In this document: in pieces, positions 1,528 through 14,197 of the stretch
How positions within the stretch are numbered: position 1 is the first letter of the stretch
Layout: every line of letters starts with the position of its first letter
Source: a virus
UHGV virus genome: UHGV-0226239
DNA length: 14,336 bases
Strand: one strand, 5' to 3'
Notes under the pieces: model-generated
Databases searched by the model: none
Seen by the model: only the letters and a program-made list of their open reading frames with translations
What the model was told of the DNA's origin: nothing
Position numbers and translations under genes: made by a program

Positions 1528-2673
1528 GTGGCAAATGATATCTTACATTTAGTTCTTGATTCGAATGTTCTTCATGAAGAAGGTTTAAATTCGAATGATA
1601 TGAAGTTATTGAAAAAATATACCGACAAAGGTTTGATTAGAATTCATTTACCTTCACTTGTGGCTAAGGAGTTTGTAACACGAAAATCAAATAATTTAAT
1701 TGATGGTCTGGAGAAATCAAAACAGTCTTTGGATTCTGTTGAGAGAGATGCTAGAGGAATAAGTGAAGAGTTATTGGAATGTTTTGATGAACTAAAGAAA
1801 AAAATCATCAATGCAAAAAATGACATTGGGAATAAACCACAGGAATGTTTTGACCGTTGGGTGCAGGACTTTAAAGTTTCTATTGTTGACACAATACCTG
1901 ACTCTGTAAATGAAGTTTTTAACGATTACTTTTTAGGTAAAGGTGTCTTCAGAAAACCAAAGGCTAGGGAAGATATACCTGATGCTTTTATTTGCGTAAC
2001 GATAATTAATTTGCTATCTGAGTTTGGCAGTATTGTTGTAGTAAATAAAGATAAAGCTTTTCGTAAACATTTGTCTGAGTATGATAAAATACAGGTGCTT
2101 CAGAGTCTGCGTGAAGTCTTTTCTTTAAAAGGTATAGATTTATTAGAAGATGAGTCAATGTTGGATTTAATCCATTCTGCTGAGTTTGTCTCTGCACTTA
2201 GCCAGTATCTACGACAGCGCCCAGATGCATTTGAGTATGTGTATTTACATGAGGATGAAATATCAAAAATAGCATTAATTGGTCAAAGGATATATGGCGC
2301 TAGTATAGAAGTAGAAAATTATAACGATATTGCTAATGCAAGTATTTCTGATGCTAGAAGTATTGATGAGCATACCTATTCGGCTTTGCTTAGTTTTGAT
2401 ATGAATGTAAATATAAATTATATAACTGATTATGGCACATTTCTCGATATAGAAAGAACACATGGTAGAAGACCAGAGATGGAAAGTATGAATGGTGACG
2501 GTATTTGTGATGTGTCTGAAAATGCTTTAACAAAGTTTTATGGTGATTTGACCGTCAAATTCAAAAAAAACAGAGAAGAGATTGACAAAAGTGATATTGT
2601 TAGATTTCTCCTTGATGAGGATATATGTGTTCAGTTTGAGATAAAAAACATTGAAATAATTGAAATGTTATAA
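1528..2673 (+). CDS. AT-rich cargo gene: 381-aa protein with N-terminal PIN-like nuclease motifs and a C-terminal domain of unknown function; candidate single-gene anti-phage/abortive-infection effector
   Basis: GTG start at 1528 preceded by AGGGAG with 8-nt spacing. About 30% GC against about 58% in flanking phage genes. Motifs D11 (ILHLVLDSNVL), E48 (PSLVAKEF), D152 (DIPDAFICVTI) and D175 (VVVNKDKAF) fit the four conserved acidic positions of PIN domains, with an insertion of about 55 aa between the second and third. Followed by a hairpin terminator. Confidence 0.8.
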   Translation: MANDILHLVLDSNVLHEEGLNSNDMKLLKKYTDKGLIRIHLPSLVAKEFVTRKSNNLIDGLEKSKQSLDSVERDARGISEELLECFDELKKKIINAKNDIGNKPQECFDRWVQDFKVSIVDTIPDSVNEVFNDYFLGKGVFRKPKAREDIPDAFICVTIINLLSEFGSIVVVNKDKAFRKHLSEYDKIQVLQSLREVFSLKGIDLLEDESMLDLIHSAEFVSALSQYLRQRPDAFEYVYLHEDEISKIALIGQRIYGASIEVENYNDIANASISDARSIDEHTYSALLSFDMNVNINYITDYGTFLDIERTHGRRPEMESMNGDGICDVSENALTKFYGDLTVKFKKNREEIDKSDIVRFLLDEDICVQFEIKNIEIIEML

Positions 2674-3741: not shown

Positions 3742-5504
3742 AAAATCTCCACAATATTGCTGGTATTGGCGGACTCGCCTTGCAGCGGTTCGTTAAACAG
3801 TGCGTGCATCGTTGCCCAGGCCAGATCCGCATGGCTGGCTTCTTCGCTGCGGCTGGCTTCATAGGTCGGGCGGTTGCCACTGGCGGTGGTGGAGCGACGG
3901 ATTGCCATAAAGGACTGCGCTATGTCGGTGTGTCCGGCGTCAAACTCCAGACGGCGGTGGCTGATAATGTCGTAGGCCTTGAGTACCAGGGCGTTTTTAA
4001 CGTTGGGGTTGTAGACAAACTCCCGGACGGCAGGAAAGAATGCTTTCACGTTCTCGTAAACCCCGTGGCCGACGCCAGTTGAGTCGATGCCGATGTATGT
4101 CACGTTGTACTGTTCGGTCAGTTTTTTGATGGCGTCAGCCTGGGCGCGGAAGTCCATCCCGCGCCACTGGTGACGCTCAAGAATGCGGAACTTACCGCCC
4201 GGCACGGCTGGCGGTGCCACCACCACGCACCCGGCGCTGTCGCCGTTCTGCGTACCTTTTGCCGGGTCATAACCGATCCACACCTCGCGCCAGCCAAACG
4301 GGCGCAGCGCCAGTGCATGAAAGTCGGTCCAGACTTCCCAGCTGTCCACCATGCACGCCTGCAGCTCGCTGAGCGGGAACACGGACGCGAGATCGTCCAC
4401 AAACTCGCACATCAGCAGGTTCTGGTATTCGTCCGGGCTGTACTCCATGCGCAACTGGTCAAGGTCGAACAGGTTGCAGCCGCCGCGCACCGCATCTTCC
4501 ACGGTGACTATCTGGCGGTACTGCCCGTCTGCGCACAGCAGGCCGGGGGCCAGATTGCGGTGGGACAGGTCGATGTCCACCTTATCGGCTTTGTTGCGCC
4601 CTCGGTTGAACAGCGCACCGGACCAGAACGGATAAGCACTGTGTGTCAGGCTGGATGGCGTGGAAAAATAGGTTTGTCGCCATTTTTTGTGAATAGCCAT
4701 ACCGGAAGCCACTTTGCGCAGCTCCTGGAATTTCGGTATCCAGAAATATTCATCCAGATACAGGTTGCCGTGGTAACTCTGGGCCGTGCGGGCATTGGTG
4801 CCGAGGAAGTAAAGCGTGGCCCCGTTAGGAAGCACCATCGGATCGCCTTTCAGCTCCACCTCCACTTCTTTGGCGAAGTCGATGATGTACTGCTTAAAGA
4901 CGTGGGCCTGTGCCTTACTGGCGGAAAGGAAAATCTGGTTACGCCCGGTAAGCAGGGCGTCAATCAGGGCTTCACGGGCAAAGTAAAAGGTCGCGCCGAT
5001 CTGGCGTGACTTCAGCAGATTGCGGATGCGGTTGGTTTTTCCGGCTTCCCACCAGTGGCGCTGGTAGTTGAACATGGAGGAATGGAAGATTTCTTCCAGT
5101 TTCTCAATCTGTTCATCGGTGAAAACATTCTTTTCCGGCTGACGGCGCGGGCCCTTATTGCGGTTGGCGACGTTAGGGTTTAAGTCAGCTTCGTTGCCGC
5201 CATTGTTAAACTTGCCGATCCGCGCGTGGCGCTCCGACTGGCGCGCCAGCAGGTCAATCTCTTTGAAATCTTTCCCTTCTTTGTGCTCCTTCATGATGAG
5301 CTGGCAGTAGCGTGCGGCGGTGGTGAGCTGCATCTGATCCAGCGGCCCATAGTCACCCCACTTGTCGCGTTTTTTCCAGCTGTGAACGGTTGCAACTTTC
5401 TCGCCCAGCATTTCAGCTATGCGGGCTACGCGGTATCCCTGAAAGTACAGCAGCATGGCCTGCCGACGGGGATCGAGATCTGCGGGTGTCAGTGTGGTGT
5501 TCAT
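3738..5504 (-). CDS. P: Terminase large (ATPase) subunit, P2 gpP-like, 588 aa
   Basis: Size and synteny match P2 gpP (about 590 aa), immediately upstream of Q on the minus strand and divergent from O. Confidence 0.9.
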   Translation of the reverse strand: MNTTLTPADLDPRRQAMLLYFQGYRVARIAEMLGEKVATVHSWKKRDKWGDYGPLDQMQLTTAARYCQLIMKEHKEGKDFKEIDLLARQSERHARIGKFNNGGNEADLNPNVANRNKGPRRQPEKNVFTDEQIEKLEEIFHSSMFNYQRHWWEAGKTNRIRNLLKSRQIGATFYFAREALIDALLTGRNQIFLSASKAQAHVFKQYIIDFAKEVEVELKGDPMVLPNGATLYFLGTNARTAQSYHGNLYLDEYFWIPKFQELRKVASGMAIHKKWRQTYFSTPSSLTHSAYPFWSGALFNRGRNKADKVDIDLSHRNLAPGLLCADGQYRQIVTVEDAVRGGCNLFDLDQLRMEYSPDEYQNLLMCEFVDDLASVFPLSELQACMVDSWEVWTDFHALALRPFGWREVWIGYDPAKGTQNGDSAGCVVVAPPAVPGGKFRILERHQWRGMDFRAQADAIKKLTEQYNVTYIGIDSTGVGHGVYENVKAFFPAVREFVYNPNVKNALVLKAYDIISHRRLEFDAGHTDIAQSFMAIRRSTTASGNRPTYEASRSEEASHADLAWATMHALFNEPLQGESANTSNIVEIF

Positions 5505-5646
5505 GGCACAAACCTACAGCCTTGAATGAAGGCTTTCCCCGCCTGTGGTTTGTGTGGTTGTCGGTACAAATACCGCGCATTGTTTCACTGCCCCCATCAC
5601 CGCAACCATAAGGCTCCAGTAAGTTTTTTCTAACGGAGCACGGCTC
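5505..5646. promoter_or_regulatory. Divergent late promoter region (P_P / P_O) with an Ogr/Delta-type activator site, TGT-N12-ACA at 5551-5568
   Basis: TGTgtggttgtcggtACA read directly; the dyad centre is about 55 bp upstream of a plausible rightward start about 30 nt before the O start codon. P2-family late promoters are known to need such a dyad centred near -55. Confidence 0.45.
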
Positions 5647-11015: not shown

Positions 11016-11454
11016 ATTACAGAAGGTGGACGACTGGCTGAGTGCTTTGCTGGCGAATCTGGAGCCAGCCGCAAGAAGCCGCATGATGCGCCAGCTGGCG
11101 CAGGAACTGCGCCGGACACAGCAGCAGAATATCAGGATGCAGCGCAACCCTGACGGCAGCAGCTATGAACCGCGACGGGTAACAGCACGCAGTAAAAAAG
11201 GCCGTATCAAACGTCAGATGTTTGCAAAGCTGCGCACCACAAAATACCTGAAAACTGCCGCCAGCGCGGATTCTGCCAGCGTACAGTTTGAAGGTAAGGT
11301 ACAGCGCATTGCCCGCGTTCACCATTACGGCCTGCGTGATCGCGTCAGTCGAAAAGGACCGGAAGTACGATACGCAGAGCGTCGTTTACTTGGAATGAAT
11401 GAATATGCAGAAAATATAGTAAAAGATATATTGTTTCAGTTGTTAATAAAATGA
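11008..11454 (+). CDS. S: Tail completion protein, P2 gpS-like, 148 aa; the last ~20 codons are AT-rich and probably chimeric
   Basis: GTG start overlapping the R stop; motifs LRRTQQQNIRMQRNPDGS and QRIARVHHYGLRDRVSRKGPEVRY resemble gpS; base composition changes abruptly near 11388. Confidence 0.85.
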   Translation: MAELQKVDDWLSALLANLEPAARSRMMRQLAQELRRTQQQNIRMQRNPDGSSYEPRRVTARSKKGRIKRQMFAKLRTTKYLKTAASADSASVQFEGKVQRIARVHHYGLRDRVSRKGPEVRYAERRLLGMNEYAENIVKDILFQLLIK

Positions 11455-11618
11455 TGTGACTAAACCACATCATTTATTGCTGACTGAAAACCACGTCTTT
11501 TGGGCGTGGTCATCAACTGGTTTTGGCTCTACATTATTGCCTTTGAATTTAAATGTTACAAAACTGGCAGTGGATTCTTTTTAAAGGTTTTGGTGCGCCC
11601 TTTTAGGATGTAATCAAT

Positions 11619-11645
11619 ACCGCCTTCTTAGAAGGCGGGTTTTTA
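11619..11645. terminator. Intrinsic terminator hairpin between convergent S (+) and the HNH gene (-)
   Basis: CCGCCTTC-TTA-GAAGGCGG stem-loop followed by GTTTTTACT on the plus strand; lies 3' of both convergent genes. Confidence 0.55.
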
Positions 11646-11648
11646 CTA

Positions 11649-12302
11649 CTAATCCATAAATGGTTCAAGAATTGGACCTAATTCAGCATCTTCCATAATG
11701 ATCCATCTGCAAAATGATGAAAAAGCTGCGTCTCTTTTTATCATCATCTTCATTTTTTCAATTAAGTATTTTTTTTGTTCTGTTGGAGTATCTTCTTCAT
11801 AATATTCATTAATATTTTTAATTAGTTTTTGGGTTGTTTTCACTACTTGAGTACGAAGTGCCGCAGAAGTTAATTTTTTACTCATGGTATGATCGCTATT
11901 ATATACTTTCTCAAGTAACTCTGCGGTCGTCTGCGTTTCAATATCATTAAATAGTGCTGTTACTGTTATTTTTTTTGCTTTATAAGAATATCCTGGGAGT
12001 AATTTTACTCGATCCCATACCTTTTCTTTACAGCAATCAAGAATGTTGTCATATTTTGATAGTTTTATATTGTTACATCTGGAACATGATAGATATAAAT
12101 TATCCCAATCAAAAGCTCTTTCCACATCATCACCCTTGGGTTTAAAATGTTCAATGTTTATATCCAAAGGGTTCTTTGTTTCGCAAATGTAACATTTTCC
12201 ATAAAAGCATTCCTGTAGTGCTTCATGTACATCAGCACCATCATAACGTGCTTTCTTGGAAAGAGACTTTGGTGCAGGATATGTTCTATTAACCTTGAAC
12301 AT
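11649..12302 (-). CDS. HNH endonuclease-domain protein, 217 aa (Septu PtuB-like)
   Basis: HNH/His-Me finger signature CYICE...IEHFKPKG...NLYLSCSRCNN (two CxxC pairs bracketing His and Asn); AGGAG RBS 5 nt upstream; the ATG overlaps the stop of the upstream ATPase gene (TAATG); about 30% GC. Confidence 0.8.
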   Translation of the reverse strand: MFKVNRTYPAPKSLSKKARYDGADVHEALQECFYGKCYICETKNPLDINIEHFKPKGDDVERAFDWDNLYLSCSRCNNIKLSKYDNILDCCKEKVWDRVKLLPGYSYKAKKITVTALFNDIETQTTAELLEKVYNSDHTMSKKLTSAALRTQVVKTTQKLIKNINEYYEEDTPTEQKKYLIEKMKMMIKRDAAFSSFCRWIIMEDAELGPILEPFMD

Positions 12303-13531
12303 TATTTCTCCTGAGAATTTGCTTTTTTATATTTTAGTATCTGCATTTTTGCATAGTCAATAAATGCACTTGCATGGATGTCCATGGATTCATCTAAAGG
12401 TGCTAAGGATTGTATTATGTTATTGGCAGTTTCAATATTGTTGTTGTTAATATTGTCAATAATATCTTGAAGTTGTTCTAACTTATCTGAAAGAACTTTA
12501 GATATTGGACTTACTCCGAATAATTCTTGAAGGATGATACCATAAGAATATGAAGACACATCACTAATTTTCGCGTTGGTCGATAGATCATAAATGATGG
12601 CATTTGTGACGGATGTAACAACAAACGGAGAATGTGTAGTGACAATGAATTGTACTTTAGGAAAGGAGTGACTAAAAAATCTTAATATTTGCTTTTGCAA
12701 AGAAACATGTAAATGCGCATCTATTTCATCAATAAAAATAATACCTTCGATACTGTCAGGTGTTAAACCCCACATTTCTACTCTCATTATTAAGTCAGCG
12801 TAAATTCTCAATATTGATGAGTGGCCAGAAGATAATGTTTGAAAAGTAAACTTATCTTTACCATCTTGATTGAGATAAAATTTTCCTTCGTTACTATCAA
12901 ACGTTAGTAAGAGGTTTTTATCTTCAAAAAGTTCCTGCATATCAGTTTCAATTTTATCAAACCATTTCTGTATCCGCTGAGCTTTCTTATGGTCATTATC
13001 AAAAGAAATTGCATAGCTCTGAGCTGTTTTTAAACTAACCAAATAATTCTCAAAGAAATCATCACCATCTACTTCATTAGAAAAATGTGATTTTTCATTA
13101 ATTAAAGCCGATAGCCTAGGAACGGCAATTGGCGAGGTAATTGATGCTTCACGTAGAGCTTTGTGAAATCTCAATAGTGAACGTGTTTCACCTTCTTTTT
13201 CTTTTGTTTCTATTCTAATGGCTTTTAATTGTTCAATTTTTAATTCAATGTTTTTTATTTCTTCAGAATAAAAGTTGTAATTAACGTCGTCACGCCCGCC
13301 GTTATTTAAGTGATATTTGTAGGACTCTAACGTATTGTATAAATTATTGATGTTATGATCATTAGGTCTATCTATCTTATTTTTAAGGAAATCATAAATA
13401 GATCTAATAAAACTAGTTTTTCCACACCCGTTACCACCAGTTATTATGAGATTTTTACCGTCAAGCAATAAGTTTGCTGTCTTATTAGTGTATGGAATTG
13501 GAGCATAAATTTCATTTATTGATGTAAGCAT
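12302..13531 (-). CDS. ABC-type / AAA_21-like ATPase, about 409 aa from ATG 13531 (Septu PtuA-like)
   Basis: Walker A (GGNGCGKTS), signature-like LSSGHSS, Walker B (IIFIDEIDAHLH) and H-loop (VTTHSP) motifs. The ORF-track start at 13630 would overlap gene V and its promoter; the internal ATG at 13531 with an AAGGGAA RBS is preferred. Confidence 0.8.
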   Translation of the reverse strand: MLTSINEIYAPIPYTNKTANLLLDGKNLIITGGNGCGKTSFIRSIYDFLKNKIDRPNDHNINNLYNTLESYKYHLNNGGRDDVNYNFYSEEIKNIELKIEQLKAIRIETKEKEGETRSLLRFHKALREASITSPIAVPRLSALINEKSHFSNEVDGDDFFENYLVSLKTAQSYAISFDNDHKKAQRIQKWFDKIETDMQELFEDKNLLLTFDSNEGKFYLNQDGKDKFTFQTLSSGHSSILRIYADLIMRVEMWGLTPDSIEGIIFIDEIDAHLHVSLQKQILRFFSHSFPKVQFIVTTHSPFVVTSVTNAIIYDLSTNAKISDVSSYSYGIILQELFGVSPISKVLSDKLEQLQDIIDNINNNNIETANNIIQSLAPLDESMDIHASAFIDYAKMQILKYKKANSQEK

Positions 13532-13618
13532 ATATTCCCTTGTGTCGTTAACAGTACAACTACAACACTGATAATAATACAACTTATTGAGATACAGTTC
13601 ACCTTTAAGGGGGGAAGG
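13532..13618. promoter_or_regulatory. Predicted V late promoter (P_V) with TGT-N12-ACA at 13541-13558, overlapping the divergent promoter/5' UTR of the ATPase-HNH operon
   Basis: TGTgtcgttaacagtACA read directly; its centre is about 55 bp upstream of a plausible start just before the V RBS (AAGGGGGGAAGG). A TATTAT -10-like hexamer on the minus strand (13574-13579) is a candidate promoter element for the divergent cargo operon. Confidence 0.4.
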
Positions 13619-14197
13619 GTGAACGCACAATTAACCGAAATCATGCGCCTTATCACCAACCTGATCCGCACTGGGGTAGTCACCGAAGTGGACAGGGAAA
13701 ACTGGCTTTGCCGAGTGAAAACGGGCGAGCTTGAAACTAACTGGATCAGTTGGCTGACGCTGCGTGCAGGAAATGCCCGGACATGGTGGCGACCATCGGA
13801 AGGTGAGCAGGTGGTGCTGCTGAGTCTGGGGGGCAATCTGGAAACGGCCTTTGCGCTGCCCGCTGTCTATTCGAATCAGTTTGCGCCACCGTCGACGTCG
13901 GCGGACGCCTGTGTGACAGAATATCCTGACGGTGGCTGGTTTGAATACGAACCTGCCACCGGGCGCTGGTATGTCAGGGGCATCAAATCCATGGTCATTG
14001 AGGCTGCCGATAACATCACCCTGAAAACCAGTGAGTTTGTGCTGGAGGCTGAGTGCACGCGTATTAACAGCGAAGTGGTGGTCAATGGTGGCGTTACTCA
14101 GGGCGGCGGAGCGATGAGTTCTAACGGGATCGTGGTTGATGCGCATCAGCATACTGGCGTCCTGAAAGGCGGCGATACAACCGGAGGCCCGGTATGA
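13619..14197 (+). CDS. V: Baseplate assembly/spike protein, P2 gpV-like, 192 aa
   Basis: GTG start with a strong RBS; motifs LTLRAGNARTWW.PSEGEQVVLL...GGN.ETAF.LP and a C-terminal SNG...H.HTG block resemble gpV. Confidence 0.85.
   Translation: MNAQLTEIMRLITNLIRTGVVTEVDRENWLCRVKTGELETNWISWLTLRAGNARTWWRPSEGEQVVLLSLGGNLETAFALPAVYSNQFAPPSTSADACVTEYPDGGWFEYEPATGRWYVRGIKSMVIEAADNITLKTSEFVLEAECTRINSEVVVNGGVTQGGGAMSSNGIVVDAHQHTGVLKGGDTTGGPV

Follow-up and report, generated by a model that had tools for sequence, protein, structure and literature searches.

The AT-rich insert between the tail genes S and V of the Escherichia coli P2-like prophage UHGV-0226239 very likely encodes a type I Septu anti-phage system, one of the exchangeable cargoes of the orf30 slot. 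This reading builds on the two-gene organization and its translational coupling, on the family, fold and intact motifs of both proteins, on the conservation of the pair and on the cassette-like character of the slot, all of which are observed in the 14,336-nucleotide stretch of DNA that we analysed (the window) or in its relatives.

The insert (~11395–13618) holds a minus-strand operon of two genes, an ATPase gene (ptuA) followed by a nuclease gene (ptuB), and the list of open reading frames (ORFs) contains no other ORF of at least 60 amino acids in these 2.2 kb. Its G+C content is 0.29–0.335 (about 0.31) in windows covering 11401–13600 and that of both flanks is 0.54–0.58 (~0.55–0.6). One flank carries gpS (Pfam Phage_tail_S, 1.3e-40) and the other gpV (Phage_base_V, 6.3e-18); the Pfam matches of gpR, gpS and gpV, together with the full prophage context, define a P2-like late-gene backbone. 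The features of the locus are collected in Table 1.

Table 1. Features of the S–V interval, in window coordinates.
Feature	Position	Strand	Basis
AT-rich C-terminal end of gpS (final ~19 codons), varying with the cargo; swapped segment begins here	11395..11454	+	Comparison of S proteins and drop in GC
Perfect 10-bp hairpin over the S stop codon	11449..11475		Inverted repeat I20
Dispersed structured non-coding repeat, 168 nt	11479..11646	+	Copies elsewhere, fold, borders
ptuB, HNH nuclease, 217 aa	11649..12302	-	PADLOC, Pfam, model, fold search, invariant residues
ptuA, ABC-type ATPase, 409 aa	12302..13531	-	PADLOC, Pfam, model, fold search
TGT-N12-ACA dyad (TGTGTCGTTAACAGTACA), predicted Ogr/late-activator site of the V promoter	13541..13558		Pattern search
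Putative ptuAB promoter: −35 TGAACT 13601–13596, 16-nt spacer, −10 TATTAT 13579–13574	13574..13601	-	Conserved blocks
Predicted P_V core: −10 TACAGT 13593–13598, start near 13605; short leader with AAGGGGGGAAGG before V	13593..13618	+	Spacing in P2

The start codon of ptuA is the ATG at 13531–13529, with AAGGGA upstream. The mechanical ORF listing gives a 442-aa form with a TTG start (12302..13630), which we rejected because it would reach 13630, beyond the V start, and because RefSeq and all 408–412-aa homologues back the shorter form. In RefSeq, a 99.9% identical E. coli locus is annotated with a 1230-bp ‘AAA family ATPase’ (WP_108429893.1) that has the same start as our 409-aa call and, for ptuB, with a 654-bp ‘HNH endonuclease’ (WP_021574535.1). 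PtuA matches the PADLOC profile PDLC00268 at 1.5e-138 (residues 2–404 on profile positions 2–409 of 411) and the Pfam families AAA_21 (6.3e-19) and AAA_15 (6.1e-12). The preliminary description, made from the sequence alone, had recognized an ABC/AAA_21-type ATPase with four motifs, and we located each of them: Walker A GGNGCGKT (K38), a signature-like LSSGH (L233-S234-G236), Walker B IFIDE (D268/E269) and the H-loop TTHSP (H300), all invariant in 35 homologues. It had also described the protein as shorter than many PtuA proteins; 409 aa is not unusually short, as the best PADLOC PtuA profile has 411 positions. The AlphaFold model of PtuA (pLDDT 82.1) has a C-terminal helical domain (345–406), and each of the top 50 matches in a fold search of the PDB is a PtuA chain, 8eea_C (1.9e-11) among them. 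The TM-scores of these matches (0.4–0.5) are compatible with a protein of several domains that has taken up another conformation and do not by themselves prove the same assembly. At the sequence level, phmmer matches of PtuA to PDB chains have modest E-values of 1e-14 to 8e-11.

The second protein matches the PADLOC profile PDLC00321 over its entire length (5e-100, residues 1–217 on profile positions 1–223 of 223) and Pfam HNH at 1.2e-05. It displays a CxxC...CxxC + EH...N...NN pattern (C37, C40, H52, N68, C73, C76, N77), in which the HNH and zinc-ligand residues are invariant in 37 homologues. The spacing of 16 between H52 and N68 equals that between H75 and N91 of Septu Ec-B88, both of which are essential (PMC13096335). 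In the AlphaFold model (pLDDT 92.8), residues 121–215 form a C-terminal helical domain, and the fold search returned nine PDB matches at E<=1e-3, all of them PtuB chains, including 8eea_G; the phmmer match to PDB sequences is about 0.006. The family match, the invariant residues and the fold matches to PtuB chains only agree with the original call of an HNH protein, and an HNH fold is not lacking, as both the model and the fold search gave HNH/PtuB.

The two genes are coupled as originally described, by a TAATG overlap (TAA 12304–12302, ATG 12302–12300) with an AGGAG ribosome-binding site (12312–12308) inside the 3′ end of ptuA, 5 nt ahead of the ptuB ATG. The pair, an ATPase of 408–410 aa followed by a partner of 217–219 aa, recurs in non-phage islands of Klebsiella and Vibrio that adjoin integrases and resolvases, and it is found in the same order and in the same S–V slot of P2-like prophages of Enterobacter, Cronobacter and Nissabacter, where the relatives are 65–70% identical. 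The locus thus has (i) a full-length PtuA with intact ATPase motifs, (ii) a full-length PtuB with HNH and zinc-ligand residues, and (iii) adjacency and common direction of the two genes with no further obligatory gene, which are criteria of type I Septu at the sequence level. The initial proposal of PtuA plus PtuB is confirmed by the full-length PADLOC matches, by PtuA and PtuB chains being the best fold matches and by a two-gene order that is kept across genera and mobile elements. The accompanying suggestion of a divergent subtype or a related family can be dropped, as the pair falls into an existing PADLOC Septu subfamily (PDLC00268/PDLC00321). The operon is correctly called ordinary Septu and is not a new kind of system.

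In characterized type I Septu systems (8EE4, 8EEA, Ec-B88), as in the present pair, ptuA and ptuB form an operon to which no third gene belongs. PtuA is an ABC-type ATPase in which the Walker A, Walker B, signature and H-loop motifs are present, PtuB is an HNH nuclease whose C-terminal domain is helical, and the folds agree over the full length of both proteins. The signature LSSGH lacks the Gln of retron PtuA, in line with the non-Gln residue found at this position in stand-alone Septu (PMC12819146). In contrast to PtuAB of E. coli ATCC 25922 (8EE4/8EEA), to which identity is only 14–16% and whose PtuA has 465 aa compared to 409 aa here, the present pair belongs to a separate PADLOC subfamily (PDLC00268/PDLC00321) and sits in a P2 tail-gene slot.

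Among ~1000 E. coli genomes with the same backbone, 13 carry Septu of this type in the S–V slot. Both genes are intact in the present prophage and in nine of the 13 copies, and ptuB is frameshifted in the other four, which form one lineage, so the Septu cargo is not always maintained. These frameshifts, the weak promoter match and the repeat element inserted beside ptuB (both described below) could be taken to mean that the copy in the window is an inert relic, carried but neither expressed nor active. This is improbable given that neither ORF is disrupted here or in most of the E. coli copies, all catalytic residues are kept, dN/dS relative to a 97% identical copy is below 1 (0.29 for ptuA, 0.12 for ptuB), and different genera have the promoter-like blocks in common.

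Less probable still is a module that serves the phage itself, be it selfish or morphogenetic, with a homing or packaging-associated HNH endonuclease and an accessory ATPase. HNH genes are common near structural genes in phage genomes and the module is placed among late genes, but the slot is empty in about half of similar prophages, making the module dispensable for the phage, and its operon runs opposite to the late operons. Furthermore, the same pair resides in the non-phage islands beside integrases and resolvases, and over its whole length, C-terminal helical domain included, the nuclease matches PtuB proteins as opposed to free-standing homing HNH proteins.

A homologous ATPase–HNH pair is the effector of type I-A retrons (Retron-Eco7/Ec78, Ec83), and retron PtuA and PtuB chains are among the best PDB sequence and fold matches of the present proteins; the PADLOC retron profiles also match (ATPase_I-A 3.5e-32, HNH_I-A 1.3e-11). 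The insert could then be such an effector pair from which the reverse transcriptase and the non-coding RNA were lost or separated. However, these matches are far weaker than those of the Septu profiles, and the scores against the NCBIfam equivalogs are far under the cut-offs (98.5 versus 500 bits and 27.5 versus 150 bits). Both the reverse transcriptase and msr-msd are missing: the insert has no other ORF of at least 60 aa and a reverse transcriptase would not fit, Rfam returned no retron RNA, and the loci of the homologues in Klebsiella, Vibrio, Enterobacter, Cronobacter and Nissabacter showed no reverse transcriptase either. PtuA, at 409 aa, also lacks the N-terminal extension, the 542–552-aa retron PtuA chains having roughly 100–140 extra residues. 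The retron reading is essentially refuted.

PARIS is an abortive-infection pair in which the nuclease is a DUF4435/Toprim protein. Like the present pair, it combines an ABC ATPase with a nuclease in P2/P4 hotspots, and the S–V slot of other strains does contain genuine PARIS. A PARIS-like or an OLD/Gabija-like system in place of Septu is nevertheless about as improbable as a retron remnant: AAA_21/AAA_15 ATPases are common to all these systems and the AriA profile does match, but only as a weak secondary hit (2.4e-23), about 115 orders of magnitude behind the PtuA profile. The partner is an HNH protein that matches PtuB from end to end. Neither protein has a Toprim domain according to Pfam, which excludes OLD, and with no third gene there is no GajB helicase.

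For the activity of this Septu system we turned to E. coli PtuAB (PDB 8EE4/8EEA), Septu Ec-B88 (PMC13096335) and retron PtuAB (PMC12819146). In 8EEA, PtuA and PtuB associate 6:2 via C-terminal helices and the nuclease is restrained by ATP; protection by Septu Ec-B88 needs both the ATPase and the HNH motifs (PMC13096335). By analogy, PtuA of the prophage would oligomerize and, with ATP bound, keep PtuB inactive, the two proteins being joined through their C-terminal helical domains. When another phage infects the cell, the HNH nuclease of PtuB would be released or activated and would damage nucleic acid by nicking DNA and/or cleaving tRNA-Tyr. The infection would thereby be aborted, and the lysogen population protected, its prophage along with it. 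The helical domains of the two predicted models are consistent with the interface described in PMC12819146. As identity to any structurally or experimentally characterized PtuA or PtuB is only 14–19% and the phmmer E-values are modest, the mechanism and, in particular, the trigger, target and stoichiometry are extrapolated from these homologues.

The S–V cargo occupies the position of orf30 in the P2 annotation: it follows the O-operon terminator, precedes the Ogr site of P_V and is encoded on the minus strand. This agrees with the preliminary description, which had named orf30 as the moron of this interval in P2. That description had placed the slot inside the tail operon; it is instead the junction of two late operons, the end of O...S and the Ogr-dependent V promoter. 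Its proposal of a second cargo hotspot was right in that the site is variable, but the site is not newly seen: the orf30 region is one of the three P2 moron regions (PMC6823313, PMC3091744). Across cargo types, the contents of the S–V interval vary and the Ogr dyad and the V start are shared. The slot is empty in about half of the roughly 1000 E. coli genomes and otherwise holds, apart from Septu, PARIS, GmrSD-like, TIR and further types of cargo. In E. coli 2014C-3075, PARIS lies in exactly this slot (AriA 2.2e-38, AriB 2e-21). Variable and often defensive content is likewise a property of the orf30, old/tin and Z/fun hotspots of P2-like phages. Defence systems have been reported within P2 tail genes with everything ‘downstream of GpL’ lumped together (PMC13586616), and surveys have mostly covered the A–Q and Z/fun sites (PMC9122126, PMC9519451); in the accessible literature on P2-like hotspots, we did not find the S–V slot resolved as a defence hotspot of its own. 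The same prophage has a PIN_12 gene in its A–Q hotspot and thus carries cargo in two slots.

The S proteins of six cargo types are near-identical up to an LLG motif (residue ~129) and diverge beyond it. Since the last ~19 S codons vary with each cargo type, the left break is near 11395 and the swapped segment begins inside S, where the GC content falls. The AT-rich insert first delimited as 11388–13618 therefore stands, with its left edge moved to ~11395. A repeat scan found no credible flanking direct repeats or terminal inverted repeats around the insert, and a transposon-type insertion of ptuAB was rejected. The sole inverted pair that spans it (I1, 19 nt, 79% complementary) falls within the coding sequence of S and around the start of V and looks like a chance match. 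The S tails, specific to each cargo, and the V start, common to all, indicate that recombination exchanges the cassettes. Among isolated phage genomes, the insert has no DNA match and two weak, partial protein matches, and plasmid records contain no relevant match.

The hairpin over the S stop codon is probably, from its sequence and place, the original terminator of the S/O operon. In P2, the O-operon terminator is annotated at the equivalent place; the Cronobacter cassette has a homologous hairpin immediately next to the stop codon of ptuB. The 168-nt repeat is inserted after S, beside ptuB, and is missing from the Cronobacter, Enterobacter and Nissabacter cassettes. Its copies are 68–82% identical and are scattered over intergenic sites, unrelated to one another, in about 20 E. 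coli genomes; exact-pattern searches of other Enterobacterales genomes gave nine matches, four of them in one Raoultella genome. The borders are sharp with unrelated flanks between copies, and the consensus fold shows compensatory changes in two hairpins. The repeat ends 3′ in a G+C-rich hairpin (11620–11638) followed by TTTTTAC, which was flagged by a terminator scan and can serve as a bidirectional terminator. The probable end of ptuAB transcription is at the hairpins that separate ptuB from S. Rfam yielded nothing at the gathering score for the whole window and only chance-level matches for 11430–11670. A full-length parent insertion sequence was not found, the lone left-end-only match being a copy truncated by ISApl1-mcr-1, and a literature search with strings of the repeat sequence returned nothing relevant. 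We weighed a 37-aa hydrophobic ORF within the repeat (11500..11613) as a candidate type I toxin and rejected it: it belongs to no Pfam or NCBIfam family, its frame is broken by 1-nt or 11-nt indels in three of 12 copies, and it is probably non-coding.

On the other side of the operon, a TTGT-N12-ACAA dyad upstream of V, annotated in P2 as an activator binding site, is kept in P2 and in all cargo types. Here, the dyad lies within the predicted 5′ leader of ptuA, and the only other intergenic matches in the window are at the P/O divergent late-promoter region (5493, 5551). The predicted start of P_V (~13605) is derived from the dyad centre (13549.5) and the spacing of 55.5 nt annotated in P2; the V start codon is the GTG at 13619. 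The −10 block of P_V reads TATAGT in Enterobacter and Cronobacter, and its spacer is ~14 nt longer here than in other cargo types. A plus-strand σ70-like match (TTAACA-16-GATAAT, 13548–13575, 10/12) overlaps the Ogr dyad and does not fit the −55 geometry.

To judge by its conserved blocks, ptuAB is probably transcribed from a weak σ70 promoter of its own that points away from V. E. coli, Enterobacter and Cronobacter share the blocks, which in Nissabacter read TTGACT-N18-TATAAA; in the window they score 8/12, under the scan threshold of 9/12. This putative promoter lies within the V promoter in back-to-back orientation, its −35 element overlapping the predicted −10 element of V, and both the overlap and the position of the dyad in the ptuA leader are conserved in the P2-like prophages of E. 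coli, Enterobacter, Cronobacter and Nissabacter. One speculative, rather unlikely interpretation is that the Septu operon is wired into the late switch of the phage as a self-immunity device, in which activation of the tail genes would occlude or block ptuAB transcription. A Septu-type system is reportedly triggered by phage tail fibres, according to work cited in PMC12819146. If the interpretation were true, the prophage would silence a tail-fibre-triggered system just when its own tails begin to be made. The promoter overlap offers a cheap, testable idea of how a prophage keeps from setting off the abortive-infection system that it carries.

These findings are mainly a confirmation and leave the knowledge of how Septu works unchanged. 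They add a well-supported enterobacterial Septu clade that travelled with P2-like phages across genera, and they document the classic orf30 slot as a real site of defence cargo, with Septu, PARIS, GmrSD-like, TIR and other contents. The S–V slot may be a defence hotspot as rich as A–Q, in which each cargo type brings its own gpS C-terminal tail, and it is useful for the hotspot-guided discovery of defence genes.

The window covers the late-gene half of a P2-like prophage of E. coli, ordered as the A 3′ end, a cargo gene, Q, P, O, N, M, L, X, the lysis genes, R, S, the insert, V and the W 5′ end (ORF list, Pfam and an annotated RefSeq locus of 99.9% identity). In composition windows, the GC content of the S-V interval drops to 0.29–0.335 versus 0.55–0.58 outside. 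The two genes of the insert, ptuA and ptuB, are intact and overlap by the common A of TAATG, with AAGGGA ahead of the ptuA ATG and AGGAG 5 nt upstream of the ptuB start. A mechanical ORF list extends ptuA to 442 aa from a TTG at 13630, a start that was set aside as RefSeq and all homologues (408–412 aa) favour 409 aa. The preliminary description of this operon proved right in every checkable detail.

Features of the window, with their strand and basis
Feature	Position	Strand	Description
PIN_12 cargo gene	1528-2673	+	381 aa; N-terminal PIN_12 domain (9.2e-21); RefSeq name only 'PIN domain-containing protein'
TGT-N12-ACA dyads	5493-5510 and 5551-5568		in or beside the P/O intergenic, divergent late-promoter region; pattern search
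Hairpin	11449-11475		overlaps S stop
168-nt element	11479-11646	+	between S and ptuB; copies in other genomes: L024:4001-4177, L025:3998-4168, L026:4000-4160, L027-L035
G+C-rich hairpin	11620-11638		T-run on + strand; terminator scan
ptuB	12302..11649	minus	217 aa
ptuA	13531..12302	minus	409 aa
TGT-N12-ACA dyad, Ogr type	13541-13558		predicted; pattern search
Putative ptuAB promoter	TGAACT 13601-13596, 16 nt, TATTAT 13579-13574	minus	conserved blocks
Predicted P_V	start near 13605; -10 TACAGT 13593-13598	+	P2 spacing; TATAGT in Enterobacter and Cronobacter

The pair is very probably a type I Septu system, as had been proposed. PtuA matches PADLOC profile PDLC00268 over positions 2–409 of 411 (1.5e-138), PtuB matches PDLC00321 over all 223 profile positions (5e-100), and the following ~20 PADLOC matches are further PtuA or PtuB profiles. 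Pfam finds AAA_21/AAA_15 in the ATPase and HNH in the second protein, and large protein searches returned relatives of matching length, over 1500 for PtuA and 310 for PtuB, mainly from Gammaproteobacteria. In an alignment of 35 diverse PtuA members, Walker A (G32-x-N34-G35-x-G37-K38-T39), the signature (L233-S234-x-G236), Walker B/D-loop (D268-E269-x-D271) and the H-loop (T299-H300-S301-P302) are invariant; in 37 diverse PtuB members, so are the zinc ligands C37, C40, C73 and C76 and the HNH residues E51-H52, N68 and N77-N78.

Confident AlphaFold models made from these alignments (pLDDT 92.8 for PtuB, 82.1 for PtuA) were compared with the PDB using Foldseek. The nine matches of PtuB at E<=1e-3 are PtuB chains only (those of retron Ec78/Eco7 and E. 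coli Septu 8eea_G; full-length, TM ~0.6), which upholds the HNH nature of the second protein, and the best 50 matches of PtuA are all PtuA chains, including 9e90_A (7e-13) and 8eea_C (1.9e-11). Identity to the solved proteins is 14–19%, and phmmer matches to PDB sequences are accordingly modest. By sequence, the window proteins form a distinct clade within the family. The clade already has its own PADLOC profile, 411 positions long for PtuA, and so counts as an established Septu subfamily rather than as the divergent subtype that had been suggested.

Other assignments fare worse. Retron I-A, whose profiles are distant seconds in PADLOC (3.5e-32 and 1.3e-11), is dismissed because the 2.2-kb insert could not accommodate a reverse transcriptase and contains no further ORF of at least 60 aa, the Rfam search of the window gave no match, and scores against the NCBIfam retron PtuA and PtuB equivalogs are far under the cut-offs. 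AriA of PARIS, against which the preliminary description suggested a profile search, is a distant second as well (2.4e-23, far behind PtuA/PtuB), and PARIS, OLD and Gabija are rejected since both proteins lack Toprim and DUF4435 domains in Pfam. The pair is not essential to the phage: in a junction probe, S and V are only 68 bp apart in 539 of ~1003 backbone genomes.

In the annotated P2 genome, S is followed by the putative O-operon terminator, the non-essential minus-strand orf30, the activator-binding site of the V promoter and V, so the S-V site is a seam of two late operons rather than the interior of one. The preliminary description had seen here a cargo hotspot inside the tail operon; the hotspot stands, given orf30 and the varied cargo, but its placement gives way to the seam. 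The orf30 region is one of three characteristic moron regions in P2-like phages (PMC6823313; PMC3091744). Rousset et al. covered the A-Q site only (PMC9122126), Vassallo et al. added the Z/fun site (PMC9519451), and a 2026 survey that used only seven core markers placed 16% of P2 defence systems 'downstream of GpL', within tail genes, with S-V not separated (PMC13586616).

In a spread sample of 60 of the 1059 matching E. coli records, about half of the slots are empty, as are about half among the backbone genomes. The other cargo comprises a TIR protein (plus strand), DUF6216 (in E. coli B REL606/BL21), DUF2971, FRG, DUF5677, Sll1717-type and other P-loop ATPases, a GmrSD-domain nuclease with likeness to NsnA/PD-T4-2, IS1 and an AAA+DUF4435 pair. 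The last is a PARIS system in E. coli 2014C-3075 (L012:1023-3123), scoring 2.2e-38 for AriA and 2e-21 for AriB. The TIR cargo of one locus (L013, NZ_JBRERL010000005.1) lies on a 56.8-kb circular record labelled plasmid, and nine P2-like backbone matches are records annotated as plasmids; these may be P2-like elements kept as plasmids, or reflect assembly labelling.

S is near-identical over residues 1 to ~129 while its final ~19 residues vary by cargo type (11395-11454 in the window, compared with L002 and L012–L015); on the right side, homology returns exactly at the V start. No credible direct or terminal inverted repeats flank the insert, a spanning 19-nt inverted pair being 79% complementary and chance-like. 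The cargo thus appears to be swapped as cassettes via recombination in S and V, with a break inside S, each cassette bringing its own S tail and V-promoter spacer. Constraint on the C-terminal tail of S seems to be relaxed or linked to the cassette.

Of 5426 complete E. coli genomes, 13 have the exact insert, always at the S-V position and with 97.2%–99.9% identity. Compared with a copy of 97% identity, ptuA has a dN/dS of 0.29 and ptuB one of 0.12, both from small counts. In one lineage (M7424 and three relatives, 4 of the 13), ptuB has lost 1 bp and is broken into an HNH fragment of 111 aa and a 'hypothetical protein' of 78 aa (L017:562-1214), and Septu is decaying there. PtuA relatives of 65–70% identity occupy the identical slot, in identical orientation, in P2-like prophages of Enterobacter hormaechei, Cronobacter sakazakii and Nissabacter archeti. 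Remoter ones (57%, 42%) reside in Klebsiella and Vibrio islands adjoining integrases or resolvases, where the ATPase is again followed by a 217–219 aa partner. By this distribution, ptuA-ptuB is a conserved mobile module, one lineage of which has long resided in the S-V slot of P2-like phages. Among isolated phages, none in the collection searched has ptuAB.

P2 and all cargo types have an equivalent TTGT-N12-ACAA dyad upstream of V, and the P_V start was predicted using the 55.5-nt dyad spacing annotated in P2. The only further intergenic TGT-N12-ACA matches in the window, at 5493 and 5551, fit Ogr sites of the divergent P_P and P_O; the one at 5551 is similar to the V-promoter dyad (TGTGT.GTT....GTACA). 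The window V has a GTG start with a strong AAGGGGGGAAGG ahead (13559-13621) and a dyad-to-start spacer that exceeds those of all other cargo types by ~14 nt; in these, V begins with ATG ~56 nt from the dyad centre, like P2. On the minus strand, conserved blocks look like a ptuAB promoter (TTGACT-N18-TATAAA in Nissabacter), although the window version matches at 8 of 12 positions and falls under the promoter scan threshold. If this reading is right, P_V and the ptuAB promoter overlap back to back with the Ogr site within the ptuA leader, which suggests, as a hypothesis, that late activation could turn off ptuAB. What makes the idea attractive is a report, cited in PMC12819146, that phage tail fibres elicit a response from stand-alone Septu. 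At the other end, ptuAB and the S operon converge on a hairpin over the S stop and a G+C-rich hairpin.

The S-ptuB gap is 194 bp in the E. coli cassette versus 16–30 bp in other genera and holds a 168-nt element, inserted exactly between ...TTTATT and TACTAA... without duplication relative to the Cronobacter 'empty site'. This element is a dispersed and structured repeat, probably non-coding. Copies 68–82% identical occupy unrelated intergenic sites in ~20 other E. coli genomes, where they adjoin yoaC, follow a MurR-family gene or lie alongside a SIR2 gene in another P2 A-Q hotspot; other Enterobacterales gave nine exact-pattern matches, four within a single Raoultella genome. Its borders are sharp, with (T)TTATT invariably on the left, frequently the T-run of a host terminator. 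The consensus folds into three hairpins, a terminal terminator hairpin and a 5′-3′ closing helix; two hairpins show compensatory changes. Neither Rfam nor a literature match by sequence accounts for it, and a 37-aa hydrophobic ORF inside, of no known family, is interrupted in 3 of 12 copies. Terminal inverted repeats and target duplication are absent, subterminal hairpins lie at both ends and the left-flank target is fixed, features that we take to resemble non-autonomous IS200/IS605-type elements; a search for a parent element found none. The repeat may be a miniature element of the IS200/IS605 type, or else an sRNA module.

Another AT-rich cargo island (~1400-2800, GC 0.30–0.34) lies in the classic A-Q (old/tin) hotspot. 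Its 381-aa PIN_12 protein has no PADLOC or NCBIfam match and is a candidate uncharacterised defence gene.

Our analysis established the genes, motifs, folds and pairing; the mechanism is extrapolated from characterised Septu systems (PMC12819146; PMC13096335). An ATP-bound PtuA oligomer would sequester PtuB via the C-terminal helical domains of both, infection would free or activate the PtuB HNH nuclease, and PtuB would then nick DNA and/or cut tRNA-Tyr, so that the cell aborts infection. We lean towards this scheme being valid in outline for the window clade. The S-V Septu is an ordinary defence system of a standard, tool-recognisable type; its variable slot has long been known, and the prophage family is very common. 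Of added note are the conserved promoter overlap, the richness of the S-V slot and the unannotated 168-nt repeat.
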